From the NCBI GenBank assembly GCA_963662615.2, contig CAXXSR010000001.1:1568001-1632000 (forward strand): 64,000 bases of DNA, written 5' to 3'. The position numbers and the translations under genes are program-made. Positions 2,514-39,279 of the stretch are shown here, in pieces; position 1 is the stretch's first letter, and every line of letters begins with the position of its first letter. Source of the stretch: Dehalococcoidia bacterium. Its GTDB lineage: Bacteria; Chloroflexota; Dehalococcoidia; Bin125. The notes beneath the pieces are model-generated. The model had not been told where the DNA came from and ran no database searches. It saw only the letters and a program-made list of their open reading frames with translations.

Positions 2514-4755
2514 ATGCGGCGACTTCGGCGGCGGCGCTTCGGTTTCGTTGCGACGACCATCACTACTTTGTACGCCTCCTTGTGGGCGACGGCGCTCGCG
2601 CTGGCTATCGGCCTGATAATCGCGCTGACGATCGCCGGACCGGCGTCCGCGCCCGTGGCCGGAAGCGCCGGCGCTGCGGACGGCAGCCGCGCACTCCCAG
2701 CGAGCCAGGTCAGCGCCGCGCCGTGGGCTCCCGCCCTGGCTGCATCGCACCGAGTGCTGACAGCGGGGTCGATTGGTGACCCCACCTGGCTCCCTGCGAT
2801 CATCTTCAACGACGGGCCCGAGAACGCGTCCTTCGCCGTCCTGATTACCGGTGGCTCCTTCGACGCCGTCTATCTGACCACCGAGGGCGTCCTCACAGCC
2901 GATGCGGATCTGTCAGAAGGAGTGAGGCTCCTCTCCGAGGATCTGATCCGGCTCTACGACGACGGCACGCACGGGGACGCCGCCGCCGGCGACGGTGTCC
3001 ACAGCCGCGCCGGTATCACCGCCCCCGGCGCCCTCAGCCACGACGGCGGCACGCACCAGCGGCTCGCGAACAAGCTCCTCTTCTTTGCGGAGCATACGAA
3101 CGGAACGGTGTAGTCTTCGATGGTGTCGCTGGAGACGGGGCTGTCGATCGTTGATGTCTCGCAGCGGGGAACGGTGGCGGTGACAACGCTGGCGCCGAAC
3201 CTGACGGCAACCTCGCACGCGCTGTTCCTAGTCGATGACGGCACGGTGTTCCCAAATTACCCGCAGGTGGATGCGGGGAGCGCCCTGGCTCTGTGCCGGG
3301 GCTGCGAGATCCTCATCACCGAGTTCGGCGATGTGTTCGACTTCATCGTCCTGCAAGTGCGTGAAGTGGTGGACGAACCGTTACGAGGGGTTCGCCAGGC
3401 CGTCTTCTCCAACATCTTCAACGATGTGCTCGGGATCGGGATCGAGCAGCGCGACCTCAACGTCGGGCCCGACACGTTCGTGGACGGGACGCCGTTCAAC
3501 ACCTACTCGCAGGGGCGGCTGCAGGGCATCATTTTCGACAACCGCGTCGACGGGGCGCCGCTGAGCCACGAGGTCATGCATCGCTGGTCGGCACACGCGG
3601 CCGCTGCGTTGGGCTGGCTGGACGGCGAAGGGCACTTCGTAGCCAACTCCGATATCAACGGCATGATGGACCTGCAGCTGCAAGAGAGCGGCGGCTCCTT
3701 GGTCAAGCGAGAAGATGCGCCCTTCCTTCCGGTCGATCTCGTCGCCAACGGAGACGGAACGTACCGTCTGGAAGCGCGGCCGGGCGAGTTCCTGGGAACG
3801 TTCGCTCCCATCTCGCTCTATGTGGCCGGATTCATCCCGGCGTCCCAAGTGCCGCGCATGCGGATCCTGGGCGGCACCATTGACCTATCGAATCCGGATC
3901 GCGTCACCGCCACGAGTGTGACCGAGATCACAGTCGAGGACGTCATCGGTCTGGAGGGGCCGCGGGTGCCTGCCAGCGCGACGGCGCCGTGCGACTTCAC
4001 GGTCGGCACAATCGTCATCAGCGATCGCCCCTATGCGGAGGCGGACTACACATTCATCACCCTGGCGCTCCGCTACTGGGAATCCGACAAGCCCTACGAC
4101 GGCTTCGGCGCACCGCCCTGGAAGACGGCCACGCTGGGGCAGAGCGAGGTCCGCGTAGCGCTGCCGGCTTCGATGGTCCCGGACGCGGGCGGGCGAACCG
4201 GAACCGATGCTGCCCGGCGCCGCAGAGAGCCGGAGCGTGCGCTTGCGGTCGGGCTGGAACTTCGTCGCGTGGTCAGGGGAGAGCACGCCGGTGGAGGACG
4301 CGATCGGGGCGATCACGCCCACAGGCGCGGCGCGACTCACCTTCTTCACATGGGATGCCGGGCAGGGGCGCTTTCGACGCTTTGACCCGGATGCGCCCGC
4401 GTTCCTCAACGAGATCACCGATTTGACCCCGGGCGAAGCCATCTGGGTCAACGTGGTTGGAGGCGGGACCGCGATCTGGGAGCAGCCGCTCGTGCGTGCC
4501 GATCGCGTCGTTCCCCTGATAGCCGGCTTCAACATGGTGTCCTGGATGGGGCCCGACAACACGCCTGTGCAGACAGTGACGGACATCCAGACCGCCACTG
4601 TGCGCCTGTTCGCCTGAGACGCCGTGGCCCAGCGCTTCCTCCAGTTCGACCCGAGCCTCCCGCCCTTCTTGAACGATCTGGCGGAGCTGGACTTCGGCAT
4701 GGCGATCTGGATTGAAGTGTTCAACGCGGCGGTGTGGGATCAGCCGTCGCCGTAG
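2514..4755 (+). pseudogene. Disrupted secreted zinc-metallopeptidase-like protein (DDGTHGD motif, HEVMH motif, C-terminal tandem GWN module)
   Basis: ORFs 2406-3113, 3120-4385 and 4207-4617 join via an in-frame TAG at 3111-3113, a +1 shift near 4191 and an in-frame TGA at 4615-4617 where the paralogs have the Trp of ...WD...; reading continues DAVAQRFLQFDPSLPPFLND...WDQPSP to TAG at 4755. Confidence 0.8.
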
Positions 4756-25485: not shown

Positions 25486-26487
25486 CTATTGGAGGGCGAA
25501 CGCTGGGTCCTTCGCTCGCGGCAGATGGTACCAGGCGTCATCGCACACGGCCAAGTCTTCCGCCGTCAGCGTGACCTCGACAGCCTTGAGTGAATCCTCG
25601 ATCTGTTCGCGACTGCTCGCGCCGACGATCGCGGAGATGATGCCGTCCTGGGCGAGCACCCAAGCGATGGCCGCCTGCGCGAGCGATACCCCACCGTGGT
25701 CGAAGTGCGACTTGAGTCGCTGCATCTGCTGAAACTGGGCCTCGTGCCAGTAGCGCCCCTGGTAGCGCGACGCCACCGTGCCCAGCGTAAAGCGGGTGCC
25801 TTGGCCGAGGTCATCCAGCGATTCGTACTTCCCGGTGAGAAAGCCGCCCGCCAGCGGGTTGAAGGCGATGACGCCCACGCCCTCCTTGCGGCATAGGGGA
25901 AGCAGTTCATCCTCAATCTGGCGGAAGAGGATGTTGTAGCGGGGCTGGTCGCACTGATACCGCACGAGGTCCAGCCGGTCACTGGCGCCCAGAGCGAGGG
26001 CGAGTTCCCAGGCCGCGTAATTTGAAGCGCCGATGTAGCGCACCTTGCCCCAGCGGACGAGGTCGTCGAACGCGCGCAACGTCTCCTCAATGGGCGTGGC
26101 CGGGTCGGGGAAATGCGTCTGATAAAGGTCCAAGTGGTCAGTGCGCAAGCGACGCAGGCTGCCGTCAACGGCGTTGAGAATGTGCGCCCGCGAGAGGCCG
26201 CGATCGTTGGGCGCGGGCCCCATGGCGCCGAAGCACTTTGTGGCCACGACAACCGAATCCCGCGGCCGCCCTTGGAGCCACTCTCCCACGATCTCTTCCG
26301 TGATGCCCACGTCGTGCGAGCCGCCGGGGTAGACGTCGGCGGTGTCCAGGAAGTTGACGCCGGCGTCCGCCGCCGCGTCGAGAATGGCGAACGCCTCGGT
26401 CTTATCGGCCTACAGGCCGAAGGTGATGGTCCCCAAGCAGATCTCGGAGACGCGCAGGCCCGAGCGGCCCATGTGGCGGTACTGCAT
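25486..26487 (-). pseudogene. Aldo/keto reductase with in-frame TAG at codon 26
   Basis: MQYRHMGRSGLRVSEICLGTITFGL*ADKTEAFAILDAAADAGVNFLDTADVY continues in frame into ORF 25486-26310; TAG at 26410-26412. Confidence 0.8.
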
Positions 26488-26662
26488 GCGGCGGCTCCTC
26501 CCCGTCGGCATGGTAGCGCCGGCGCTCCCACGGTCCACCCGCGCGACGCGGGCAGGGGGCGGAGCCCTTCGGCTCAGCGACTCCCAGCGCGGCCGTCTCA
26601 GCGGATTCAGGGCGGCGGTCGCGAGGTCGCGGCCGGAGTCGTCTGCCTGTATTCTCCACGTC

Positions 26663-27631
26663 ATGCATGTCCTCATAGCGACGGGGATGACGCTGCCGTC
26701 GGTTGGGGAGGCGGAACTGCAGCGCATCCGGAGCGCCGCCGGCGACGACGCCGAGGTCAGTGTCGCCGCGAGCCGTGGCGAGGCGCTGGAAGCGATATCC
26801 ACCGCCGAGGTGCTCTTCGGCGCGCTGGACCCGACGCTGTTCGCCGCGGCGAATTCCTTGCGCTGGGTCCAGGCCACGGCGTCCGGCGTGGACAAGTACC
26901 TGTTCCCCGAATTCAAGGCGAGTGACGCCGTCCTCACCGGCGAGAAAGGGCTGGTGGGAGGGCACTTGGCCGATCACGCCTTCGCGCTGCTGTTGGCGTT
27001 GACACGGAAGTTGGCGGAGGCGGTGCGGCTGGGCCCCCAATCCTGGGAGCAACGCTTGGAACTGCGACCGCAGGAGATTGAGCTGGAAGGCCTGACGATG
27101 GGCATCGTGGGGTTCGGCGGGACCGGCCGGGAGGTGGCGCGTCGGGCGACCGCTTTCGGGATGCACGGCCGGGCCGTGGACCGCGATGCGGTGCCGGGGA
27201 CGGCGGAGCTCCCGCTCGTGCAGTCGCTCAACAATCTGCCGCGCCTGCTAGCGCAGTCCGACGTCGTCACGATCTGCTGCCCGCTGACGCCGGCGACGCG
27301 CGGCCTGTTCAATGACGAGACGCTGGCCTTGATGAAGCCCACGGCGATCCTGATCAACGTCACGCGTGGCGAGATCGTGGATGGCGACGCGCTGGTGCGG
27401 GCGCTTCGAGAGGGCCGTCTGGCCGGCGCGGGCCTGGACGTGACGCCGGAGGAGCCGCTTCCGGCGGACCACCCCCTCTGGCAGTTCGACAACGTGGTCA
27501 TCACCCCGCACATCGCGGGAGCGAGCCAGCTGCGGGCGGGGCGGAACATTGAGAGGTTCTGCGAGAACCTGCGCCGCTATCGCCGCGGGCTGCCCCTCAT
27601 CGGCCTGGTGGACAAGGATCTGGGCTACTAA
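26663..27631 (+). CDS. D-isomer-specific 2-hydroxyacid dehydrogenase
   Basis: GIVGFGGTG, LINVTRG, GLDVTPEEPLP, TPHIAG; start MHVLIATG. Confidence 0.9.
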   Translation: MHVLIATGMTLPSVGEAELQRIRSAAGDDAEVSVAASRGEALEAISTAEVLFGALDPTLFAAANSLRWVQATASGVDKYLFPEFKASDAVLTGEKGLVGGHLADHAFALLLALTRKLAEAVRLGPQSWEQRLELRPQEIELEGLTMGIVGFGGTGREVARRATAFGMHGRAVDRDAVPGTAELPLVQSLNNLPRLLAQSDVVTICCPLTPATRGLFNDETLALMKPTAILINVTRGEIVDGDALVRALREGRLAGAGLDVTPEEPLPADHPLWQFDNVVITPHIAGASQLRAGRNIERFCENLRRYRRGLPLIGLVDKDLGY

Positions 27632-27982
27632 GGCGGCGTCGGCGCCACGAGCCCCGACCGCTCGTCCTGAGCTTGCTGATCCTCGGCTTGCCGACAGGTC
27701 AAAGGGCCCGGGCCACAACCTTCTTGCCCCGTACCCCGTGACCGTTCCTACAGGCAGCGGCTGCCCCCTTGCCCCGACCGCGCGGCCCTAGCGCTGCTCC
27801 GACGGACGAAGCGATCGCGTGGAGCCGGGCCCGCCCGCGGGGCCCAGGGATGGCGCTCGTGCTCGGCCTCACAACAGGTCCAGGACGAAGGCCCGCTCGT
27901 ATTCCTGGTGAGCGGGGCTGGTGAGGGAGGCCGGCGGCGGCGGCGCTGTCGGCGGTCGAAGAGCGCATCAGGAGGCAGAGGG

Positions 27983-28174
27983 ATGGGCTTGTTTACGGGT
28001 CTACGAAGAGCGATGCGGCGCGGGCCCTGCGACCACGCCAACATTGACCCGCATTGGAACCGGATTGAAGACGAGGGTCAGCAGGACCGGATTGACCACT
28101 ACATCTGCCCGCGCTGCGGAGCCCGGTTCCCAGAGAGGGCAGGAGCGTACCTCCTGGAGGGTCGGAAGCACTGA
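27983..28174 (+). CDS. Small putative zinc-binding protein (63 aa)
   Basis: SD-like GGAGG/GAGGG upstream; C-D-H ... CPRC ligand pattern. Confidence 0.6.
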   Translation: MGLFTGLRRAMRRGPCDHANIDPHWNRIEDEGQQDRIDHYICPRCGARFPERAGAYLLEGRKH

Positions 28175-28417
28175 CTCCACTGCGGCGCCGTGCGGCGCAT
28201 CCACTGCCTGCTAGGCCGGCGCGCCCATAGGAGGCGGGCAGTTGAGCGAGCCCCGCAAGGGGCGAGAAGAGCGGGCCGCGGCCCGCTCTTCGGTTGTAGC
28301 GGTCCCTCCTCCTCCCGCGTCAGTTCGATACGCTACCTTCTCCCAGGACTCATTCTCCAGGACTGGGCCCTGCCGGCTTAGCGCCGGCCGGCCTCTTTTC
28401 ACACGCGGGAGCAATGG

Positions 28418-30073
28418 ATGGCGGAGCTGAGCGGGGCACAGATCGTTGCCAAGTCCCTAAAGACGCAAGGCGTTGCGGAGGTGTTCGGGATCGTGGGGCT
28501 GCCGGTGGGGCCGGTCGCCAAGGCCCTGATCGACGAGGACATTCGCTTTGTGGGGACACGGCACGAGCAGGCAGCCGGCTACGCCGCTCAGGCGGCCTCC
28601 TACCTGCGCGGGCGCATCAGTGCGGCGCTGGTGGTCTCCGGTCCGGGCATGATGAACGCCGTGACGACCCTGGGGAATGCGGCGGCGAACTGCTGGCCCA
28701 TGCTGCTGATCGGCGGCTCCTCCAACTTGCGGCTGCTGGGCCGCGGCGACTTCCAGGCGGCGCCCCAGATGGACGCGGCGCGACTGTTCGTGAAGTGGGC
28801 CGAGCAGGCGCAGGACCCGCGTCAGATCCCCTTCCTTGTGTCCAGCGCCGTGCGGCAGGCGATCAGCGGCCGGCCGGGACCGGTCTACCTTGATCTCCCG
28901 GGCGACGTGATCGAGGCGACGGTGGACGAGGCGGACGTGAAGTGGGAGGCGCGGGTCCCGGACCCAACCCGGATTGAGGTGAGCGACGCCGCGGTCGCGG
29001 CAGCGATTGAGGCGCTGCGCAGCGCGGCGAACCCGCTCGTGATCATCGGCAAGGGCGCCGCCTGGGCGCGGGCCGAGGGCGAAATCCGCGAGTTCATTGA
29101 AAGGACGCAGCTGCCCTTCCTGGCGACGCCCATGGGCAAAGGGGTGGCGCCGGATGAGCATCCGCTCAACGCCGCCGCCGCGCGGACCTTCGCGCTGAAG
29201 AATACCGACTTGATCTTTCTCATTGGAGCCCGCCTCAACTGGATCCTGCACTTCGGGCTGCCGCCGCGGTTCCGGGAAGGGCTGCGCGTGATCCAGCTCG
29301 AAATTGAGGCCGAAGAGATCGGCGCCAACGTGCCCACCGAAGTGCCGCTGGTGGGCGACGCCAAGGCGGTCATGGCCCAGCTCAACGCGTATCTGGACGA
29401 GCGGCCCTGGCAGTTCGACGACGCGAGCGAGTGGGGGGCTTCGATCCGCGCCGAGACGGAGCGGAAGCATGACGAGAATGTGCCGCGCTTCGCTTCGGAC
29501 GAGTCGCCCATGAACTACTACCGCCCTCTCAAAGAGATCGAAGAGGCGCTGCCGCGCGATGCCATCGTCATCTCCGAGGGCGAGAACACGATGGCCATAG
29601 CGCGACAGGTGATCATGAGCTCCCACCCGCGGGCGCGCCTGGACGCCGGGACCTGGGGGACCATGGGCGTGGGTCCCGGATTTGCCCTCGCGGCGCAGCT
29701 GGTGCATCCCGATCGGCGGGTCGTGGCGCTGGAGGGCGACTCCGCGTTCGGCTTCGACGCGACCGACGTGGAAACCGCGGTGCGGCACCGGCTGCCGATC
29801 ACGTGGATCGTCTTCAACAACAACGGCATTGGGCGCGGCACGGCGACGCTGGACCCCGGCAGGCCCGTGCCGCCCAACGCGCTCTCGCCGGGCAGCCACT
29901 ACGAGCGAATCATCGAGTCGTTCGGCGGCAAGGGCTACTACTGCGCTTCGCCCGACGCGTTGAAGGCGGCCCTGGCGGACGCCTTCAAGCAGGAGGTTCC
30001 CACGCTGATCCATGTGGAACTGGACCCGAAGGCGGAGCGGCGCCAGCAGGAGTTCGTCTGGTGGAAGCGCTAG
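28418..30073 (+). CDS. TPP-dependent enzyme, oxalyl-CoA decarboxylase / 2-hydroxyacyl-CoA lyase family
   Basis: RHEQAAGYAA, GRPGPVYLDLP, RLDAGTWGTMGVG, EGDSAFGF...NNNG. Confidence 0.9.
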   Translation: MAELSGAQIVAKSLKTQGVAEVFGIVGLPVGPVAKALIDEDIRFVGTRHEQAAGYAAQAASYLRGRISAALVVSGPGMMNAVTTLGNAAANCWPMLLIGGSSNLRLLGRGDFQAAPQMDAARLFVKWAEQAQDPRQIPFLVSSAVRQAISGRPGPVYLDLPGDVIEATVDEADVKWEARVPDPTRIEVSDAAVAAAIEALRSAANPLVIIGKGAAWARAEGEIREFIERTQLPFLATPMGKGVAPDEHPLNAAAARTFALKNTDLIFLIGARLNWILHFGLPPRFREGLRVIQLEIEAEEIGANVPTEVPLVGDAKAVMAQLNAYLDERPWQFDDASEWGASIRAETERKHDENVPRFASDESPMNYYRPLKEIEEALPRDAIVISEGENTMAIARQVIMSSHPRARLDAGTWGTMGVGPGFALAAQLVHPDRRVVALEGDSAFGFDATDVETAVRHRLPITWIVFNNNGIGRGTATLDPGRPVPPNALSPGSHYERIIESFGGKGYYCASPDALKAALADAFKQEVPTLIHVELDPKAERRQQEFVWWKR

Positions 30074-30400
30074 CCCGCCGCTGGGGCCCACGGGAGGCTT
30101 CGCCTGCCTCGCGGGCGATGCTCCGGAGCCGCGGCGCCGGGAGCGCGCGGTAGCGCGCTGCCGGCGCCGCGGCGGGCCACAGCGATGCGGTAGTGGGGCC
30201 CCGCGGCGGTCCAGACGGGCGGCGTCCTTCGCCCGGAGGGCCGAGGACGCTCCAGACCTTTGGCGGTGAAGAGACCGTCCGGTTGCCCCAGGGCAGGATG
30301 GGCGTCACGTCCGTTGTGACGGCTGGCCAGCTAAGCCGACAATAGCCCCGGCCGTCGGCAGGGCAGACGGTTGCGACCGGTTGAACGGAGACGCCAAGCA

Positions 30401-30748
30401 ATGCTTCGCTTCCGCGACCGCGACTGGTGGTGGACGAAGGAGCCGCTCGGCCTCGAGGATCCGGAGCCGGCGTTACTGGTGGCGATGCTCCGTCGACGCG
30501 GGGAGCGCGAGCGAGCGCACGTTTGGCTCGCCCGGCATCTGCACCGCCCCTACTCGCCGGCAACGGGACACGCATTCCTGTTCACCCTGCGCCAGAAGCT
30601 CGAAAGGGCCGGCGCTCCCCCGGACCTCGTCGCGGTGGACGCTGCTCAGAGGGCCATGGTGGCCGTTGACGCCGCCGCCGCGAATGACCCCGAGACGCGG
30701 GCCGAGATGGGGCTGGAGCCCGTCGATGCCCTCCCCGCGAGCGCCTGA
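30401..30748 (+). CDS. Hypothetical protein
   Basis: GGAG upstream of ATG at 30401; MLRFRDRDWWWTKEPLGLEDPEP...; no recognised motif. Confidence 0.55.
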   Translation: MLRFRDRDWWWTKEPLGLEDPEPALLVAMLRRRGERERAHVWLARHLHRPYSPATGHAFLFTLRQKLERAGAPPDLVAVDAAQRAMVAVDAAAANDPETRAEMGLEPVDALPASA

Positions 30749-30860
30749 GGCATCCGACAGCATCCCCGGGCGCATATTCAAATGCCGCGGCGGACCGATC
30801 CGGCGCGGGCCGCTACCATGGCGTTTCGCGAGAGGGTGGACAGTGACCGCAGGCCGGGCG

Positions 30861-31751
30861 ATGGTCAAATTCTGCCTGGGCGCGGGCTGCGCGGGCGCGG
30901 CCCTGGCGGCGTATGCCTGGCGCGAGTCGAAACGTGTGGAGCTCACCCACACGGTGATCCGCCTCCCTGAGCTCCCCGCCGGTCTGGAGGGGCTGCGCAT
31001 CCTCCATGTGGCGGATACGCATTTCCCCCGTAACCGCGAATCGCTGCCGCGCTTTCTGGACGCCGCCGCGAGTCTCGACTACGACATCGTTTTCGCCACG
31101 GGCGACTACGCGGACACGACGCGGGGCTGGCCGGTGGTCGCGGAGGCGTTCCGCCGGCTGGAGCCCAAGCTCGGCATCTACGCCGTGATCGGTGGCCACG
31201 AGAGGTACGCGCCGGCGCCACCGATCACGGAGGCGCTGCGGCTGCTCCGGCTCTTCCGCCGGGGCCGCAAACGGCGGCTTGTGGACCCAACGCCGCTCGT
31301 GCAGCAGCTGGAAGCCGCGGGCGTGCGGGTCCTCATCAATGCCAGCACGACGCTGGAGATCGGTGGCGAGGCGGTCCGGCTGATCGGGATCGATGACGCC
31401 TACCTCGGCCTCGACGACTTGGAGGCCGCAACAAAACCACGCGGCACGCCGGAGCCTGCGGCCTTCACGATCCTCCTGAGCCACTCACCGGATGGGGTCC
31501 CGCTCGCCACGACGGCAGCGATCCCTCTGGCGCTGAGCGGCCACACGCACGGGGGGCAGATTCGCGTGCCGTTCTACGGGGCGCCCGTTCGGCACGCCCG
31601 GGCCGTGGATCGGCGGCAGGCGGCCGGGCTGATGCGAATCGGCGGGACGCAGGTCTACGTGAGCCGCGGCTTCGGCACGACGGGTCTCCCGTTGCGCTTT
31701 GCCTGCAGACCCGAGCTGGGAGTGGTGGAGCTACGGCGGGAGACTGAATAA
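30861..31751 (+). CDS. Metallophosphoesterase (YkuE/MPP superfamily)
   Basis: HVADTH, TGDY, GGHE (usually GNH), LLSHSPD, LSGHTHGGQ, VSRGFG. Confidence 0.88.
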   Translation: MVKFCLGAGCAGAALAAYAWRESKRVELTHTVIRLPELPAGLEGLRILHVADTHFPRNRESLPRFLDAAASLDYDIVFATGDYADTTRGWPVVAEAFRRLEPKLGIYAVIGGHERYAPAPPITEALRLLRLFRRGRKRRLVDPTPLVQQLEAAGVRVLINASTTLEIGGEAVRLIGIDDAYLGLDDLEAATKPRGTPEPAAFTILLSHSPDGVPLATTAAIPLALSGHTHGGQIRVPFYGAPVRHARAVDRRQAAGLMRIGGTQVYVSRGFGTTGLPLRFACRPELGVVELRRETE

Positions 31752-31932: not shown

Positions 31933-31941
31933 GATACGATC
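31933..31941 (+). promoter_or_regulatory. Extended -10 promoter element upstream of the riboswitch
   Basis: TG-A-TACGAT a few nt before the aptamer 5' end, within an AT-richer intergenic stretch. Confidence 0.45.
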
Positions 31942-31948
31942 GTGGCAC

Positions 31949-32072
31949 GCAGCCGAGCCTCGTCCCAATGGATGAGGGCGGGGGACCCAATCCTCTGGGG
32001 TGAATCCGGGGAGGCAGCAGCCACCCGGTAGGCGACCCGAGCGCCGAACCCGTCAGCTAACCCCGTAGGCGC
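31949..32072 (+). ncRNA. c-di-AMP riboswitch (ydaO/yuaA class)
   Basis: Ordered consensus blocks GCCGAGCC...GGGGGACCCA...TGGGGTGAATCC...GGTAGG...CCGAACCCGTCAGCTAACCCCGTAGGCG. Confidence 0.92.
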
Positions 32073-32191
32073 ACTCTGGGGCGGCCCATCCTGGCCGGAC
32101 ACAGTTCCCCCTGATGGTCTGTACCCATCTTGTTCTCTGGACCGCGGCGGCGCGTCTCGTCGTCTCGCGCGTCCGGAGGGAGGAGGAAGAC

Positions 32192-33784
32192 GTGCTGAGA
32201 ATCGAACCACGGGCAGCAGAACCTAGGACCAACGTGCCGTCATTCCCCTTGCGACGGGGTACTCCGGCCGGTGCAGAGCCTGCCCCGGACCAGTATTTCG
32301 CGATCACACTGCACAACTTTGAGTCCGTACCGCAGGTGCAGGCGTTGCCGCCAGCGCTGCGCCGGGACATCCGCGTCGTGGGGCAGGTGCTGCCATTCAA
32401 ATCCAACCGCTATGTGGTGGACCAGCTGATCGACTGGCGCCGGGTGCCGGATGACCCGATCTTCCGCCTCACGTTCCCGCATCGGGAGATGCTGGAGCCA
32501 TCGGCGTATGACCGCATGGACGCGCTGCTGCGATCGGGGGCTCCCACGGCGGAGCGCAAGCAAGCCGCGGACGAGATCCGTCGCTCGCTCAACCCCCATC
32601 CCGCCGGGCAGATGGACCACAACGTGCCGAGCTTGCACGGACGTCCCCTCCCGGGCATGCAGCACAAGTACCGAGAGACGGTGCTGTTCTTTCCCAGTCA
32701 GGGGCAGACCTGTCATGCCTACTGCACGTTCTGCTTTCGCTGGCCCCAATTCGTGGGGCTGGCGGGCCAGAAATTTTCAATGAGCGAAGCGGAGCTTCTG
32801 CGCGACTACGTGGAAGCGCATCCGGAGGTCAGCGACGTCATTTTTACCGGCGGGGACCCCCTGGTGATGAAGACGAGGATCCTGCAAGAGTATCTGGAGC
32901 CCCTCTTAGAGCCGGGCGCGGCGCCGAACCTCCGCACGATCCGAATTGGTTCCAAAGCACCGGCCTACTGGCCCCAACGCTTCATTGCGGACGATGACGC
33001 CAGCCAACTGCTGCAGCTCTTCCAACGCGTCACGGCATCGGGCCGACAGCTCGCCCTGATGGTGCATTACAACCATCCGGTGGAGCTGGAGACGGCGATG
33101 GCGAGGGAGGCGATTGCGCGGTTGCGCCGTGCGGGCGTGCAGATCCGGACGCAAACACCGCTGTTGCGCCACATCAACGACGACCCCGACACCCTGGCCC
33201 AGATGTGGCGCGCGCAGGCGCAATTGGGCTGCATCCCGTACTACCTCTTCGTGGAACGTGACACCGGCGCCCGCCGCTACTTCGAGCTGCCTCTGGCGGA
33301 GTGCTGGCGGATCTTCCGGGAGGCGTACAGCCGGGTGAGCGGCGTCGCCCGGACGGTCCATGGCCCCAGCATGTCGGCGACTCCCGGCAAGGTTCAGGTG
33401 ATGGGCGTGGCTCGCGTCCACGGCCAGAAGGTGTTCGTCCTGCGCTTCTTGCAGGCGCGGAACCCGGACTGGGTGGCGCGACCGTTCTTCGCCAAGTACA
33501 ACGCTACCGCCTGCTGGCTGGACGAGCTGGAGCCCGCCTTCGGGGAGCCGGAGTTCTTCTACGAGGCAGAGCTGAAGAGGCTGCTGGCGAAGCCCGGAAG
33601 CTCCTGGGCCCGCGCGGGCGACGAGGTGTCCGGCGCTGGCGACTCCGGCGCTGGCAGACTCCGGCACTACAGACTCCGGCACTACAGACTCCGGCGCTAT
33701 AGACTCCGGCGCGATCCCCGTCCTAGGCGAGCCGGGAGCATCTCGGAAAGTAAGGGGCGTTTCGAGCCTTCGACTCGCGGCTGA
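32192..33784 (+). CDS. KamA-family radical SAM/PLP 2,3-aminomutase (lysine or glutamate)
   Basis: GGAGGAGG RBS and GTG at 32192; GMQHKYRETVL, CHAYCTFC (CxxxCxxC), FTGGDPL, HYNHPVE, QTPLLRHINDD, PYYLF, TPGK. Confidence 0.88.
   Translation: MLRIEPRAAEPRTNVPSFPLRRGTPAGAEPAPDQYFAITLHNFESVPQVQALPPALRRDIRVVGQVLPFKSNRYVVDQLIDWRRVPDDPIFRLTFPHREMLEPSAYDRMDALLRSGAPTAERKQAADEIRRSLNPHPAGQMDHNVPSLHGRPLPGMQHKYRETVLFFPSQGQTCHAYCTFCFRWPQFVGLAGQKFSMSEAELLRDYVEAHPEVSDVIFTGGDPLVMKTRILQEYLEPLLEPGAAPNLRTIRIGSKAPAYWPQRFIADDDASQLLQLFQRVTASGRQLALMVHYNHPVELETAMAREAIARLRRAGVQIRTQTPLLRHINDDPDTLAQMWRAQAQLGCIPYYLFVERDTGARRYFELPLAECWRIFREAYSRVSGVARTVHGPSMSATPGKVQVMGVARVHGQKVFVLRFLQARNPDWVARPFFAKYNATACWLDELEPAFGEPEFFYEAELKRLLAKPGSSWARAGDEVSGAGDSGAGRLRHYRLRHYRLRRYRLRRDPRPRRAGSISESKGRFEPSTRG
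33626..33716 (+). repeat. 15-bp tandem repeat (GACTCCGGC[A/G]CT...), ~6 copies, at the 3' end of the aminomutase gene
   Basis: Units at 33626, 33641 (16 nt), 33657, 33672, 33687, 33702. Confidence 0.85.
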
Positions 33785-33960
33785 GCCCTCTCCCCGCAGA
33801 ACCTGGGATGATCGGGCCAGGCGGAGAGCATAGGGAACCCGCTCCTGGCGCACTCGGCCGAATTGGTCGAGGACGCCGCACCGTGCCGACCCAGAGCGGT
33901 CGCGGCGGCGGCCGCTCCTGTGAGCAGCGGCCCGGTCTCGCCGGTTCGAGGAGGGCTAGG

Positions 33961-34734
33961 GTGGGCGAGCGCTGGTTCATAGGCCTGGACTTGGCCTGGA
34001 GTGACCGGCATGAGAGCGGGCTGGCCCTGCTGCGATGCCGACACGGCGCACTGGAGTTCGTCGACACGGATGTGGCGCGCGACCTGGAGGAGATCGCGGC
34101 GCGCATCCGGGCGCTGAGCGGCGCCTGGTGGATCGGCATCGACGCGCCCTTGGTGGTGGCGAACAGGACGGGACGGCGCCCCGTCGACGGGCTGCTCTCG
34201 GCCATCTACGGCCGTTTCCATGCGGGCGCCCATCCAGCCAACCAGCGGCTGCTGCAGGGGAAGGTGCGAGGTGGCGACCTCGTGCGGCTGCTGGCGGACG
34301 ATGGCGTTGAGATGGCCAGCGGCGCGGATGGTGCCGGACCAGGTGCAGGTCGGTGGGCGTTCGAGACGTATCCGCACGCGGCCATGGTGGAACTCTTCTC
34401 GCTGTGGCGGATTTTCAAATACAAGCGCGGGCGCGTGGCGGCGCGGCGCCTGCAGATGCAGGAGTTGGCGGCCTGCTTGCACCGACGTCTGCCGACGCTC
34501 GATCCGCCATTGCTCATCTCCTCCGGTCTGGCGACGCTGCTGGGAGTGAGCACGCAGAGCCTGCGCGGCCGCTCGCTCAAGCGGCACGAGGACATGCTGG
34601 ACGCGCTGGTGTGCGCGTACGTCGCGGCTCATCTGTCGTGGTGGGGCGAGCGCCGGAACTGGTCGTTGGGCGACGACGCTTCCGGCGCCGTGATCCTGCC
34701 CGCGCTGCGGGCCGACCTGATCCTGGGCCGATGA
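33961..34734 (+). CDS. DUF429 family (RNase H-like fold) protein
   Basis: FIGLDLAW, IGIDAPLVV.N.TGRR, FETYPHAA, FKYK, EDMLDALVCAY. Confidence 0.85.
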   Translation: MGERWFIGLDLAWSDRHESGLALLRCRHGALEFVDTDVARDLEEIAARIRALSGAWWIGIDAPLVVANRTGRRPVDGLLSAIYGRFHAGAHPANQRLLQGKVRGGDLVRLLADDGVEMASGADGAGPGAGRWAFETYPHAAMVELFSLWRIFKYKRGRVAARRLQMQELAACLHRRLPTLDPPLLISSGLATLLGVSTQSLRGRSLKRHEDMLDALVCAYVAAHLSWWGERRNWSLGDDASGAVILPALRADLILGR

Positions 34735-35309: not shown

Positions 35310-36986
35310 ATGTTCGACGCGGAAAAGATCGCGGCCTTGAAGGCACGACGCTCCGCCTGGGAGGCCGCTGCGGAGGCGGCCGGGCAGGAGCGCGCGGGCC
35401 CGTTCATGACCGTGTCGTCGCGGCCCATCCGGCGGCTGTACGACCCGACCGATCTGGCCGCGGACGGCTTCGACTACGAGGGCGATCTCGGCAACCCCGG
35501 CGAATATCCCTACACGAGGGGCATCCACGCGACCGGCTATCGGGGGAGGCCCTGGACCATTCGCATGTTCGCCGGTTTCGGCAGCGTGGAGGAGAGCAAC
35601 GCGCGCTACAAAGAGCTGCTGCGCCAGGGGCAAACGGGGCTCAGCATCGCCTTCGACATGCCGACGCTGATGGGCTACGACCACGACGACTCGTGGAGCG
35701 AGGGGGAATTCGGGAAATGTGGGGTGGCCGTCTCCTCACTGGCCGATATGGAGATCCTGCTGGCGGGCCTGCCCCTGGACCAGATCACGACGTCCATGAC
35801 GATCAACTCGCCCGCCGCGGTGATCTGGGCCATGTACATCGCCGCGGCCGAGAAGCGCGGGATCGATCGGGCAGCGCTGGGGGGGACGCTCCAGAACGAC
35901 ATCCTGAAGGAGTTCATTGCCCAGAACGAGTTCGTGTTTCCACCGCGTCCTTCAATGCGGCTGGTGACGGACACGATTGAGTTCGCAACGCAGGAATTGC
36001 CCAAGTGGAACAGTGTCAGTGTCAGCGGGTACCACATCCGCGAGGCCGGAGCCACGGCGGCGCAGGAGCTGGCCTTCACCCTGGCTGACGGATTCGAGTA
36101 CGTGCGCTGGGGGCGTGATCGCGGACTCGACGTGGACGCCTTCGCGCCGCGCTTGTCTTTCTTCTTCAACAGTCACAATGACTTTTTTGAGGAGATCGCG
36201 AAGTTCCGGGCGGCGCGTCGAATCTGGGCGCGCGAGATGCGGGAGACGTTCGGGGCCAAGGAGCCAGGCTCATGGCGGCTGCGCTTCCACACGCAGACGG
36301 CAGGAGTTGCCCTCACGGACGTGCAACCGGAGGTCAACATGATCCGGGTGACGATTCAAGCGCTGGCGGGTGCGCTGGGCGGAACCCAGTCGATGCACAC
36401 CGACGCAATGGACGAGGCGCTGGCGCTGCCGAGCGAGAAGGCGGCCCGCCTGGCCGTGCGAACGCAGCAGGTGATCATGCACGAGTCCGGCGTGATCAAC
36501 ACGGCCGACCCTCTGGCCGGCTCCTACTTCATGGAGGCCCTCACCAATGAGCTGGAACGGGACGCCCGCGTCTACTTCGCCAAGATCGACGCGCTGGGTG
36601 GCGTCATCCCGGCCCTGGAGGCGGGCTTCTTTCAGCGCGAGATCGCCGACGCGTCCTACCGCTTTCAGCGGGAAGTGACGGAGGGGCAGCGAACGATCGT
36701 CGGCGTGAACGCCTTCCAGCACGACGAGCCGCTCGTGATTCCCATCCTGGCTATGGACGCTGAGGGCGAAGGGCGGCATCTGCAACGCCTGCGGCACACC
36801 CGGGCAGAGCGCGACGCTGACGGGGCCCAAGCGGCGCTGCAGCGGCTGGAGAACGTCTGCCGCGACCCCAAGGCGAACACCATGCCCTTCATCCTGGATG
36901 CCGTGAACGCCTACTGCACCTTGGGCGAAACGATGGGGGCCATGCGGCGCGCATTTGGCGAACACAAGGAGAACGTGATCATCTAG
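35310..36986 (+). CDS. B12-dependent acyl-CoA mutase large (substrate-binding) subunit, isobutyryl-CoA mutase-like
   Basis: [49 protein letters not shown]; no DxHxxG cobalamin domain. Confidence 0.9.
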
Positions 36987-37022
36987 GGGAGCGCGGCACG
37001 ATTCGGGTGAGCGGGGGGCCGC

Positions 37023-37325
37023 TCAGGCGGGGTCGTCCGATCGCGGGTGGAGCTTCTCAATGATCCGGGTCGCTTGCAGGACTTGCTCGCGAATCGTTGC
37101 GGCCGCGTCGGCTGGTTCCACGGCCTGGCGTTCCAAGAGGTCGGCGCAGAGCTGCACCACGCTGATCACGTTATTGAGGTCGTGCAGGGCGCGAGCAACG
37201 CTCTCGCGGAACGCGGAGTCAAGCGGGGACTGCGCCCCGGGGGGGCCGTCGGGTTGCCCGGGCGGGCCTTCGTCTGGGTGCACCCCGGTGGCCTTCCATG
37301 TGGCCGGTTCGGCGTCTGCCCGCAT
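37023..37325 (-). CDS. Small protein resembling an isolated histidine-kinase dimerization/phosphoacceptor (H-box) domain
   Basis: VARALHDLNNVISVVQLCADLL...IREQVLQATRIIEKL; no HATPase domain. Confidence 0.55.
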   Translation of the reverse strand: MRADAEPATWKATGVHPDEGPPGQPDGPPGAQSPLDSAFRESVARALHDLNNVISVVQLCADLLERQAVEPADAAATIREQVLQATRIIEKLHPRSDDPA

Positions 37326-37375
37326 CGTAGCGTCGGCGGCGGTCCCGGCCCAGCCGGAGCAGCGCAGGCGCGCGC

Positions 37376-38284
37376 CTACAAGATGCGACGCCCCAAGGCG
37401 GAGAGCGCCAGCTGCGTGCCCAACTCCGCCGTCGCGTTGAGTCGGTCCAGGCTCGGATTGATCTCCACCACGTCCATGCCAATGAGGCGGCCGGCTTCCG
37501 CGACCAGTTCCATGAGCAGGTGCGATTCGCGATAGCTGAGGCCGCCGCGAACCGGGGTCCCAACCCCGGGGGCTGCCTCCGGGTCCACCGCGTCCATGTC
37601 GAAGCTGACATAGATGCCGGCGCCGCCGGCGCCCGCCACGGCGACGGCCTGCTCAGCCATGGGCCCGATGCCGGCGCGATCGACGTCGGTCATGGTGATG
37701 GCCGTGACGCCGGACTCTCGAACGATTGCCTTCTCGCGCTCGTCGAGGTCGCGAATGCCGATGAGCACGGTCTGCTCTGGGCGTACGGCGGGGTTGATCC
37801 CGCCGATGCCGCTGAGCAGATCCGGGCCTTTCCCGAGCAGCGAGGCCAAGGGCATACCGTGGACGTTGCCCGATGGCGAGCTTTGCGGGGTGTTCATATC
37901 GGCGTGCGCATCCACCCAGATGACGCCCGCTGCCTGGCCTTCGCGCCGGCGCGCCTGGGCGACGCCGCTGATCGACCCCATGGCGAGGCTGTGGTCACCA
38001 CCCAGCACCAGCGGGATCGCCCCCGCCGCCGCGCTCCGCTGCGTCCGCTCGGCCAGCCGTTCGCAGACATCCGCGATGGGGCCGGCGAAGCGCTGGCTGG
38101 GATCCCCCTCGTCGCTCATTTCGGGAATGGCGGCGTCAACGTTGCCCAAGTCCGAGACGGCGTGGCCCAGCGCCTCGACGCGCTTACGGAGGCCGGTCAA
38201 GCGCATTGCGCTGGGCCCCATGTCCGTGCCACGGCGTCCTGCGCCAAGGTCGATGGGGACGCCAATGATGTGGACGGTGGCCAT
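37376..38284 (-). CDS. rocF: Arginase
   Basis: GAGRRGTDMGPSAMR, LGGDHS, DAHAD.N, SPSGNVHGMP, SFDMDAVDP, VVEINP. Confidence 0.93.
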   Translation of the reverse strand: MATVHIIGVPIDLGAGRRGTDMGPSAMRLTGLRKRVEALGHAVSDLGNVDAAIPEMSDEGDPSQRFAGPIADVCERLAERTQRSAAAGAIPLVLGGDHSLAMGSISGVAQARRREGQAAGVIWVDAHADMNTPQSSPSGNVHGMPLASLLGKGPDLLSGIGGINPAVRPEQTVLIGIRDLDEREKAIVRESGVTAITMTDVDRAGIGPMAEQAVAVAGAGGAGIYVSFDMDAVDPEAAPGVGTPVRGGLSYRESHLLMELVAEAGRLIGMDVVEINPSLDRLNATAELGTQLALSALGRRIL

Positions 38285-38354
38285 GGCGTCAGGCTATCGC
38301 ATTACGGGCGCATCGCTGGCGCATCACCGGCGGGGGGCGGCCGACAAGATCGCG

Positions 38355-38771
38355 TCAGGCGAGCCCCCAGCTCGCGACATGTTGGGCCGCTAGGCGGATC
38401 ACGGGACGGCCGTCCAAGTGCATCTCGCGATACTGCGGGTACTTCTCGCGCAACGCGGCGATCGCGCGCCCTGCTTCCTCGTCGCCGGCCAGGACCGTGG
38501 CGCTGCCACGCAGCATCACCCAGGCCAAGCGCGACCAGTCCCGGTCATACGAATCCACCACCAGCGCCGCCCGCGGATTCTCCTGGATGTTGCGGATCCG
38601 CTTGAGGCGAGTGGTGCTCTTGGGCTTGCGGTCAATGACGATGTAGACGGCGTCATCCACGAGGGCGAAGCAGACCGGCACGACATGCGGCGCACCGTCG
38701 GCGTCAGCGGTGGCCAGCCGGCCAACTTGCTGCTGCTCCAAGAAGGCGCGGGCGTTGTGTGGCAACGGCAT
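38355..38771 (-). CDS. PPOX-class F420-dependent oxidoreductase (Rv0121-like)
   Basis: GRLATAD..G.PHVVPVCF, IDRKPK, RIRNIQENPR, YDRDWSRLAWV, LREKYPQY. Confidence 0.88.
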   Translation of the reverse strand: MPLPHNARAFLEQQQVGRLATADADGAPHVVPVCFALVDDAVYIVIDRKPKSTTRLKRIRNIQENPRAALVVDSYDRDWSRLAWVMLRGSATVLAGDEEAGRAIAALREKYPQYREMHLDGRPVIRLAAQHVASWGLA

Positions 38772-38988
38772 ACGGCGCGGTCCCGGGTGTCTCATGCGCG
38801 GGCGCAGGCGGGCGCCGACGTATGATACCGCCGGCGCGGGACGGGGCGCGCAACCCTGCGCCTGATGCGCCGCCACTGCGCCGCCACAGCGCCGAGAGCA
38901 CCAGGTGGGGCGGAAAGCGGGGGGACGCTCCGCCTCGCTATACTGCGCTCGCTGGGAGCGGAGAGATGTTCCCATAGTGGAGGTCAGC

Positions 38989-39279
38989 ATGGCGGAACGC
39001 CGTCGCCTGAACGATGCCGAGATTACGGACCGGCTTGCCGGGCTCAGCGGCTGGGAGCTGCGGGACGGCAAGCTGCACAAAGAGGTGAAATTCAACGACT
39101 TCACGGAGGCGTTCAGCTTCATGACCGCGGTGGCGCTGGTCGCCGAGAAGATGGATCACCATCCGAACTGGTCCAACGTCTACAACCGCGTCGTGGTGGA
39201 TCTCAGTACGCACGACCTGGGCGGGATCAGCACGTACGACTTCGAACTGGCGACGGCGATCGACCGGTTCACGGTCTAA
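38989..39279 (+). CDS. phhB: 4a-hydroxytetrahydrobiopterin (pterin-4a-carbinolamine) dehydratase
   Basis: [26 protein letters not shown]...LSTHD.GG. Confidence 0.92.

Follow-up and report, generated by a model that had tools for sequence, protein, structure and literature searches.

A gene located behind a riboswitch aptamer was studied in a 64,000-nucleotide stretch of DNA, hereafter called the window, from a Dehalococcoidia bacterium of the phylum Chloroflexota (contig CAXXSR010000001.1, positions 1,568,001 to 1,632,000). An aptamer for cyclic di-AMP (c-di-AMP) of the ydaO/kimA type (RF00379; positions 31952-32070 of the window) precedes a gene of 530 codons (32192-33784) whose product, P0001, belongs to a divergent, uncharacterized clade of radical S-adenosylmethionine (SAM)/pyridoxal 5'-phosphate (PLP) enzymes of the KamA type. 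The same combination recurs in other Chloroflexota. Probably, the RNA is an OFF switch, and the enzyme most likely converts L-glutamate into β-glutamate for use as an osmolyte. The leader elements, the aminomutase gene and the gene that follows it in the window are located on its forward (+) strand; other loci, genomes and proteins are referred to, where needed, by our L, G and P numbers.

That a c-di-AMP riboswitch can precede an osmolyte gene of the KamA family is already in print. In the original prediction for this stretch of DNA, which was based on the sequence, the pairing was thought to be undescribed. However, a tandem Na+/c-di-AMP riboswitch located before ablA, which encodes lysine 2,3-aminomutase in Dehalobacter sp. 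CF, was published in 2022; c-di-AMP triggered termination in vitro with <5% read-through, ablA was considered an osmolyte-precursor gene, and eam, for β-glutamate, was named as one of the genes under Na+ riboswitches (White et al., 2022; PMC9337991). The two cases are alike in having a c-di-AMP aptamer on a KamA-family gene, a β-amino acid as the osmolyte and, as proposed, expression when c-di-AMP is low. They differ in that the window has a single aptamer and belongs to another phylum and, presumably, also in the protein, which in the window is of a clade without the lysine-binding residues. Full-text searches, which covered the main texts of openly available papers, did not reveal a riboswitch pairing with this clade or in Chloroflexota. 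New are the repeated association of the riboswitch with this clade, the confinement of this association to a single class among the sampled genomes, and the apparently translational platform in the window.

Linkage of the aptamer and the aminomutase gene

The aptamer was the sole Rfam match in the entire 64-kb window (cmscan; 74.8 bits at E = 1.6e-15, the gathering score being 38). The same site was recovered in a separate search of the full genome. It is an ordinary member of the RF00379 family and coincides with the ydaO/yuaA aptamer that had been predicted at 31949-32072. Its aligned positions are 12-118 of the 134 positions of the model; those of relatives align over positions 1-134. The assembly that holds the window (2.66 Mb in two contigs, 93.6% complete) contains four c-di-AMP aptamers, with scores of 96.8, 92.6, 74.8 and 68.3 bits, and one gene for a DAC-domain protein, i.e., the diadenylate cyclase that the original prediction called for (140 bits vs. 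a cut-off of 27). At the 3' side of the other three aptamers (C1:1560185-1560319, C1:64650-64783 and C2:213633-213767; L001, L002 and L004), only short or unassigned open reading frames (ORFs) are found, with a YjeF_N gene after one of them and a response regulator gene further on after another.

The aminomutase gene starts with a GTG at 32192, and its frame to 33784 includes the cluster motif QTCHAYCTFCFRWPQF. Because a 90%-identical relative begins three codons earlier and an in-frame ATG at 32114 has no Shine-Dalgarno sequence, a start near the GTG is favored over this ATG.

In a survey of homologues, in which each species was represented by one genome, 586 relatives were obtained among 593 candidate stretches. 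The best 80 loci were used, and all of them were analyzed with Rfam. Of the 17 Chloroflexota loci, 10 have an aptamer directly upstream of the gene and on the same strand (L006, L007, L008, L011, L018, L020, L027, L031, L036, and L071), vs. none of the 63 loci from other phyla. The latter include Bacteroidota, Balneolota, Ignavibacteriota, Chlorobiota, Pseudomonadota, Myxococcota, Acidobacteriota, Verrucomicrobiota, WOR-3, Thermoplasmatota, and Nitrososphaerota as well as one unclassified bacterium. The seven remaining Chloroflexota loci stayed negative at E ≤ 1. For Na+ riboswitches, neither the window nor the 80 loci gave a match at or above the gathering score.

A protein search across the phylum matched only 3 of 151 genomes and was too sparse; therefore, a search of the class was used instead. 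The class sample overlaps with the sample of 80 loci, both being drawn from species representatives. The gene was present, at E ≤ 1e-80, in 65 of 401 genomes, that of the window included, and in all 25 sampled genomes of the family to which the window belongs. The other 64 carriers were scanned for aptamers with stricter Infernal filters, by which weak matches may be lost; 52 of them contained at least one aptamer, and 112 aptamers were found altogether. In 18 of these 64 genomes, the protein match is preceded on the same strand by an aptamer at a distance of up to 300 nt, and the distance is 615-750 nt in three more; thus, 18-21 of the 112 aptamers precede the aminomutase gene. By simple arithmetic, the chance of finding one aptamer in such a 300-nt slot is ~5 in 100,000, and the total number expected is ~0.01. 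As the pairs far exceed chance, yet many carriers of the gene are without one, the link between riboswitch and gene is real but facultative. Hence, the pairing seen at a single locus in the original prediction is conserved, both among the Chloroflexota loci and in the class sample.

The pairs are spread over six of the nine taxonomic families that carry the gene, and two families have no aptamer anywhere in their genomes. In a quick maximum-likelihood tree of 81 proteins (IQ-TREE), the Chloroflexota sequences formed two separately supported clades, which are not sisters, plus one sequence on its own. Aptamers are found in 5 of the 10 rows of the first clade and in 6 of the 7 rows of the second, a distribution that requires at least four gains or losses on the tree. 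The nearest named relatives of P0001 are metagenome bins labeled Chloroflexota or Dehalococcoidia.

Additional aptamers were observed near some of these genes. In L018, from a Dehalococcoidia bin, a second c-di-AMP aptamer (2256-2388, - strand; 56.9 bits) has the opposite orientation and precedes a gene for a class-III aminotransferase (913-2205, - strand) resembling glutamate-1-semialdehyde aminomutase (329.8 bits, under the cut-off of 398). From the presence of this opposed aptamer, both divergent units appear to be under the control of c-di-AMP. In three genomes of one family, extra aptamers (G176:C5:28414-28546, G374:C24:17986-18118, and G535:C1:2005001-2005133) are located on the same strand, either 150 nt past the aminomutase gene or 1.6-3.6 kb ahead of it, which suggests a local cluster of c-di-AMP-controlled units in that family.

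The leader RNA and its predicted switch

The Shine-Dalgarno run of the gene, GGAGGGAGGAGG (32175-32186), was read from the sequence 5 nt before the GTG. A hairpin had been predicted in this region, in which CTCTGGAC (32135-32142) pairs with GTCCGGAG (32171-32178). Both 8-mers are located at these positions and are paired in the minimum-free-energy and the centroid folds, in which they form the core of a longer stem. This predicted stem-loop extends to 32125-32187, with CCAUCUUGUUCUCU paired to the Shine-Dalgarno run. Thus, rather than merely abutting the ribosome-binding site, as was originally described, the stem encloses it entirely. The calculated free energy of the 73-nt segment containing the stem is -34.1 kcal/mol (z = -1.85), and 9 of 200 shuffled sequences were equally stable. 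Folds of the whole leader were no more stable than those of shuffled sequences (z = 0.20 and 0.92), a comparison that is uninformative in a sequence with 70% GC.

Directly 3' of the aptamer, folds of the leader minus the aptamer show an irregular GC-rich hairpin (32079-32125), which is a candidate anti-sequestor and corresponds to the first hairpin of the two nearest relatives (see below). A weak terminator-like element (32113-32138) consists of a 5-bp stem and then TTGTTCTCT, the pyrimidine tract of which doubles as the anti-Shine-Dalgarno strand. This element was found in a terminator consensus scan, which yielded three terminator-like sites in the region vs. 1.3 expected from shuffled sequences. 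There is no U tract 3' of the 32125-32187 stem, and a sigma-70 promoter scan gave 0 sites. With its buried Shine-Dalgarno sequence and no U run, the platform in the window is apparently translational.

Burial of the Shine-Dalgarno sequence is also predicted for related leaders. In all eight close leaders, folded minus the aptamer, it is mostly paired, with a mean unpaired probability of 0.13-0.34, of which the lowest value, 0.13, is that of the window. The two nearest relatives of the window, L006 and G281, the latter of which is from the same family, share with it the order of aptamer, first hairpin, YUGUUCY tract, GC-rich inner stem, and Shine-Dalgarno sequence. The YUGUUCY tract is kept in both relatives and pairs with the Shine-Dalgarno sequence in the folds of these leaders. 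The inner GC stems of the three are unrelated in sequence and not alignable, and public contigs of the same population as the window are identical to it across 32046-32683; for these two reasons, no base-pair covariation could be counted for the stem. A different arrangement is found in five loci of the second Chloroflexota clade (L027, L018, L020, L031, and L036). There, a GC hairpin of 12-14 bp with a U-rich tail comes immediately after the aptamer, and then a small hairpin of pyrimidines and Shine-Dalgarno sequence. This platform looks like a terminator plus a sequestor.

We infer both the OFF logic and a coupling between the aptamer and the stem. High c-di-AMP concentrations would most likely shut the gene off, by analogy with published c-di-AMP riboswitches, which terminate transcription when the ligand binds (PMC9337991). 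The full-length Rfam match of L006 includes the 5' arm of the first hairpin and, consequently, this hairpin should compete with the outer helix of the aptamer. A ligand-bound aptamer would keep this arm and so block the first hairpin, upon which the pyrimidine tract could close on the Shine-Dalgarno sequence. When the aptamer is free, the first hairpin would form and take up part of the tract, and the Shine-Dalgarno sequence would be released. In the window, the long stem-loop would thus stay closed at high c-di-AMP and block the start of translation, and in the distant Chloroflexota relatives the terminator-like GC hairpin with its U-rich tail may serve instead. When c-di-AMP falls, under osmotic or potassium stress, the enzyme would be made. 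The proposed system resembles the RF00379 ydaO/kimA leader of Bacillus subtilis in the family of the aptamer, its position in a 5' leader and the presence of a cyclase gene in the genome. It differs from the studied examples of RF00379 in its translational-looking platform, where these have an intrinsic terminator, and in the class of the downstream gene.

The active site and the probable substrate

P0001 scores below the cut-off of every curated model of the KamA group. It reached 136.6 bits with the KamA family model TIGR00238 (cut-off 199.2), 135.9 with the equivalog AblA-like 2 (396), 115.7 with the EpmB equivalog TIGR03821 (369.3), 112.2 with the AblA equivalog TIGR03820 (525.4), and 111.1 with the equivalog for arginine 2,3-aminomutase (600). 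The match to Pfam Radical_SAM was also sub-threshold (28.8 vs. 29.5). The gene is the sole KamA-family match in the source genome. Members of the clade from different bacterial phyla and from archaea are 55-76% identical; of the clusters made at 50% identity, 4310 matched at E ≤ 1e-3 and 344 at E ≤ 1e-30. The AlphaFold model, built with 71 sequences, has a pLDDT of 87.5 and a pTM of 0.88, and the top and only strong match in the PDB found with Foldseek was 2A5H, i.e., KamA of Clostridium subterminale (E = 3.5e-18, TM score 0.59-0.67 over ~420 columns), the next fold having an E-value of 6e-6. Thus, the assignment to a poorly characterized KamA subfamily in the original prediction is upheld by both the fold and the profiles.

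The conserved core of P0001 comprises approximately residues 31-475. Invariant among the 71 sequences are the CxxxCxxC cysteines C144, C148, and C151, an Arg located two residues past the last of these, the GGD motif G190-G191-D192 and the lysine K370 of a PGK motif (A1 numbering). K370 aligns with the PLP lysine of two EpmB proteins. These motifs, including the Arg after the cysteines, are shared with 2A5H. The two proteins differ in their overall sequence (22% identity), in the N-terminal region, which is longer in the window protein, in the C-terminal part and, above all, at the two acidic positions Asp293 and Asp330 of 2A5H, which we take to be the residues that hold the ε-ammonium group of lysine. 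In both single-sequence and profile alignments, Asp293 of this lysine 2,3-aminomutase is replaced by an invariant Arg (Arg356 in the window protein). The second acidic position, which was placed by gapless register seven residues before the PLP lysine, is occupied by Ser393, which is conserved in at least 90% of the sequences. As controls, the EpmB proteins of Halomonas salifodinae and Ectothiorhodospira shaposhnikovii were used (492 and 460 bits vs. a cut-off of 369). In a joint alignment, both have Asp in the column of Arg356 and Glu or Asp at the position of Ser393. By its residues, therefore, the clade is not one of lysine aminomutases.

These data bear on the possibility that the gene encodes an AblA-type lysine 2,3-aminomutase making free β-lysine as an osmolyte. 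Relatives of P0001 are named "lysine 2,3-aminomutase" in the databases, the fold matches that of 2A5H, and the Dehalobacter riboswitch described above precedes ablA (PMC9337991). However, P0001 falls far short of the cut-off set for AblA, Arg and Ser have replaced both acids that would hold the ε-amine whilst true EpmB proteins keep them, and no acetyltransferase is present among the annotated neighbor ORFs in the window or among the three tallied clusters of conserved neighbors (class I/II aminotransferase, MscS, and Na+/H+ exchanger; see below). In the AblA-type system, a salt-induced KamA-family enzyme makes a β-amino-acid osmolyte (PMC1224877), a feature that the system proposed here would share; the window differs from it by the absence of an adjacent AblB-type acetyltransferase besides the low AblA score and the lost lysine-binding residues. 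All in all, we consider a lysine 2,3-aminomutase improbable.

An EpmB-type role in the modification of elongation factor P (EF-P) would fit with the fact that the source genome has no second KamA-family gene. However, the score with the EpmB model is less than a third of the cut-off, neither lysine-binding residue is kept, the protein is longer by ~130 residues and has a C-terminal domain not found in EpmB, and H. salifodinae and E. shaposhnikovii carry a true EpmB in addition to a member of this clade. We regard this role as very improbable.

Instead, the enzyme of the proposed OFF switch probably acts on glutamate. Because of the cationic residue in the pocket, lysine or arginine is disfavored and a substrate with an acidic side chain is favored; amongst these, glutamate is the simplest candidate, since a 2,3-shift on aspartate would regenerate aspartate. 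Hence, we infer L-glutamate as the substrate, and the product β-glutamate would function as an osmolyte, i.e., an anionic compatible solute able to accompany K+. Of the two products suggested in the original prediction, β-glutamate is thus retained as the favored one, and free β-lysine, given the Arg and Ser at the positions of the lysine-binding acids, is not. The clade would have the proposed reaction in common with glutamate 2,3-aminomutases, i.e., Eam (TIGR04368), a methanogen enzyme and IdnL4, and presumably also the absence of the aspartates that bind lysine. The methanogen enzyme, reported by Tunckanat and co-workers in 2022, is said to have a role in salt tolerance. As to a tie with the latter, the clusters of 10 representatives carry only generic names, and the protein atlas gave only "KamA / lysine 2,3-aminomutase". 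For IdnL4, from the incednine macrolactam cluster, the activity as a glutamate aminomutase is supported by a knock-out only (PMC11284099).

Some more distant sequences were also encountered. In the shorter but full-length relatives P0173, P0177, and P0191 (409-418 amino acids, 30-34% identity), both the Arg at the position of Asp293 and the PGK lysine motif are lost, and these proteins probably represent additional KamA-like clades that differ in function. When loci were scanned with P0242, a long relative, one unrelated Phycisphaerae locus was obtained.

The C-terminal tail of P0001 is not conserved. The gene contains here a 15-nt tandem repeat of 5.5 copies (33629-33712; Tandem Repeats Finder), and the contigs of all four public runs, from four studies, are without 16 nt at 33641. 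This single 16-nt unit shifts the frame of the tail in the window; P0002 (100% identity) and P0003 (90%) read the other frame. In the common form, the frame continues to a TAG at ~33839-33841 and overlaps the start of the next gene at 33808. From the contigs of the runs and the frames of P0002 and P0003, the RLRHY-repeat tail of the window is taken to reflect either variation between strains or an error of assembly. The shift leaves the catalytic core untouched.

Neighboring genes and osmotic physiology

The annotated flanking ORFs encode a metallophosphoesterase upstream and a DUF429 protein, a methylmalonyl-CoA mutase and an arginase downstream. The DUF429-family gene (33808-34734; Pfam PF04250, 72.4 bits) begins 24 nt after the stop codon of the aminomutase gene and may be co-transcribed with it, but it is probably not a functional partner, since a homologue is found downstream in just 2 of the 80 loci (L006 and L011). 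The aminomutase gene was originally described as stand-alone. In the window this does not strictly hold, given the DUF429 gene on the same strand; it does hold for the clade, as clustering of all ORFs of the 80 loci showed that the gene is mostly solitary, with few recurrent neighbors. It had also been noted that no acetyltransferase, EF-P-related or lysine-fermentation gene is adjacent, and indeed none was found among the annotated neighbor ORFs in the window. Further out, at 26342-31751 and 35310-39122, the window contains genes resembling those of organic-acid and amino-acid metabolism, i.e., for a D-2-hydroxyacid dehydrogenase, a YaeI-like metallophosphoesterase, methylmalonyl-CoA mutase, and arginase-family and PNPOx-like proteins, as well as a thiamine diphosphate-dependent enzyme resembling oxalyl-CoA decarboxylase (538 bits, slightly below the cut-off of 557). 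The phosphoesterase and the mutase flank the aminomutase gene in about five related loci. In a Thermoplasmata bin (L053), a cobalamin riboswitch (3474-3668, + strand; 101.5 bits) is located 76 nt after the homologue and presumably controls the next gene.

Three neighbors recur in other phyla. A gene for a class I/II aminotransferase resembling aspartate aminotransferase is present in 10 of the 80 loci; 8 of these have it on the same strand, with an overlap of the aminomutase stop codon. The overlaps, of 7-40 nt, are found in L015, L017, L028, L040, L046, L050, L056, and L063, from Chitinophagales and Ignavibacteria. The two genes seem to make up a conserved operon, one that Chloroflexota do not have. 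A gene for an MscS mechanosensitive channel was found in six loci, in four of which it is on the same strand within 80 nt, and one for a Na+/H+ exchanger in five. The latter two neighbors lend indirect support to the osmolyte idea.

The overlapping aminotransferase gene could also point elsewhere, namely to an aminomutase with another substrate or in a non-osmotic pathway, such as the cell envelope, a precursor of the 3-aminobutyrate type or catabolism, in which case the control by c-di-AMP would reflect a cell-wall regulon. The related IdnL4 feeds the starter unit of a macrolactam (PMC11284099), and cell-wall genes are also among those under c-di-AMP riboswitches (PMC9337991). However, no polyketide synthase (PKS) or non-ribosomal peptide synthetase (NRPS) domain was matched among the annotated neighbor ORFs or the conserved neighbor clusters of the 80 loci, and the mostly solitary gene, the identity of 55-60% between bacterial and archaeal loci of the survey, which fits with a single primary-metabolic product, and the MscS and Na+/H+ exchanger neighbors do not fit well with this explanation. 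We consider it unlikely, albeit worth keeping in mind.

Several observations weigh against a c-di-AMP OFF switch on a β-glutamate-forming enzyme. As to the RNA, the outermost helix of the model is unmatched in the window aptamer, a feature in which it also differs from the studied examples of RF00379. The shuffle statistics, taken on their own, give modest support for the stem around the Shine-Dalgarno sequence, and this stem is predicted with or without the aptamer, so that the folds alone show no switch. As to the linkage, 43-46 of the 64 class genomes with the gene have no linked aptamer, and in the window's own family the pair is found in only 4 of the 25 genomes and is missing in 21. As to the enzyme, the score with the glutamate 2,3-aminomutase model TIGR04368 was the lowest of the six KamA models (88.3 vs. 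a cut-off of 650), which also sets the clade apart from clostridial Eam. The Arg/Ser pair of the clade, which would follow the same charge logic of basic or neutral residues in place of the two aspartates, differs in its residues from the Lys/Asn of the clostridial glutamate enzyme, and other acidic or neutral substrates may be used. Finally, the Nitrosopumilus genomes that were searched, to which we turn below, are metagenome bins and other than the strain in which β-glutamate was measured. Taking these points into account, we still hold the OFF switch and the formation of β-glutamate to be the probable explanation.

The distribution of the clade beyond Chloroflexota allows a wider, more tentative proposal. 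To our knowledge, the gene for β-glutamate synthesis is unclear in Nitrosopumilus and in most bacteria. In two Nitrosopumilales genomes, the top KamA-like match is a member of this clade, and a concentration of 730 mM β-glutamate is reported for Nitrosopumilus maritimus (Heal et al., PMC8269262). Possibly, though we would not yet count on it, this widespread orphan clade supplies the glutamate 2,3-aminomutase that has been missing from bacteria and ammonia-oxidizing archaea, gated by a c-di-AMP riboswitch in Chloroflexota.

In the bacteria studied so far, the main known role of c-di-AMP is to restrain the import of potassium and compatible solutes, and a low level of it is tied to osmotic or potassium stress. 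For direct control of a solute-synthesis enzyme by a riboswitch, we know of one published example, ablA in a Firmicute. The results described here add a second, uncharacterized aminomutase clade as a recurrent riboswitch target in another phylum, and they would tie the stress signal c-di-AMP to the making of protective solutes besides their import. The regulatory link constitutes independent evidence for the place of the clade in osmotic physiology and speaks for the formation of β-glutamate, though it is no proof of it. The system consists of one RNA of ~260 nt and one enzyme, which can be tested separately. If the proposal is true, the nucleotide that restrains the uptake of K+ and osmolytes would also restrain the de novo synthesis of β-glutamate, a non-metabolized anion that would balance K+, and in the class the gene would have acquired the riboswitch on more than one occasion.

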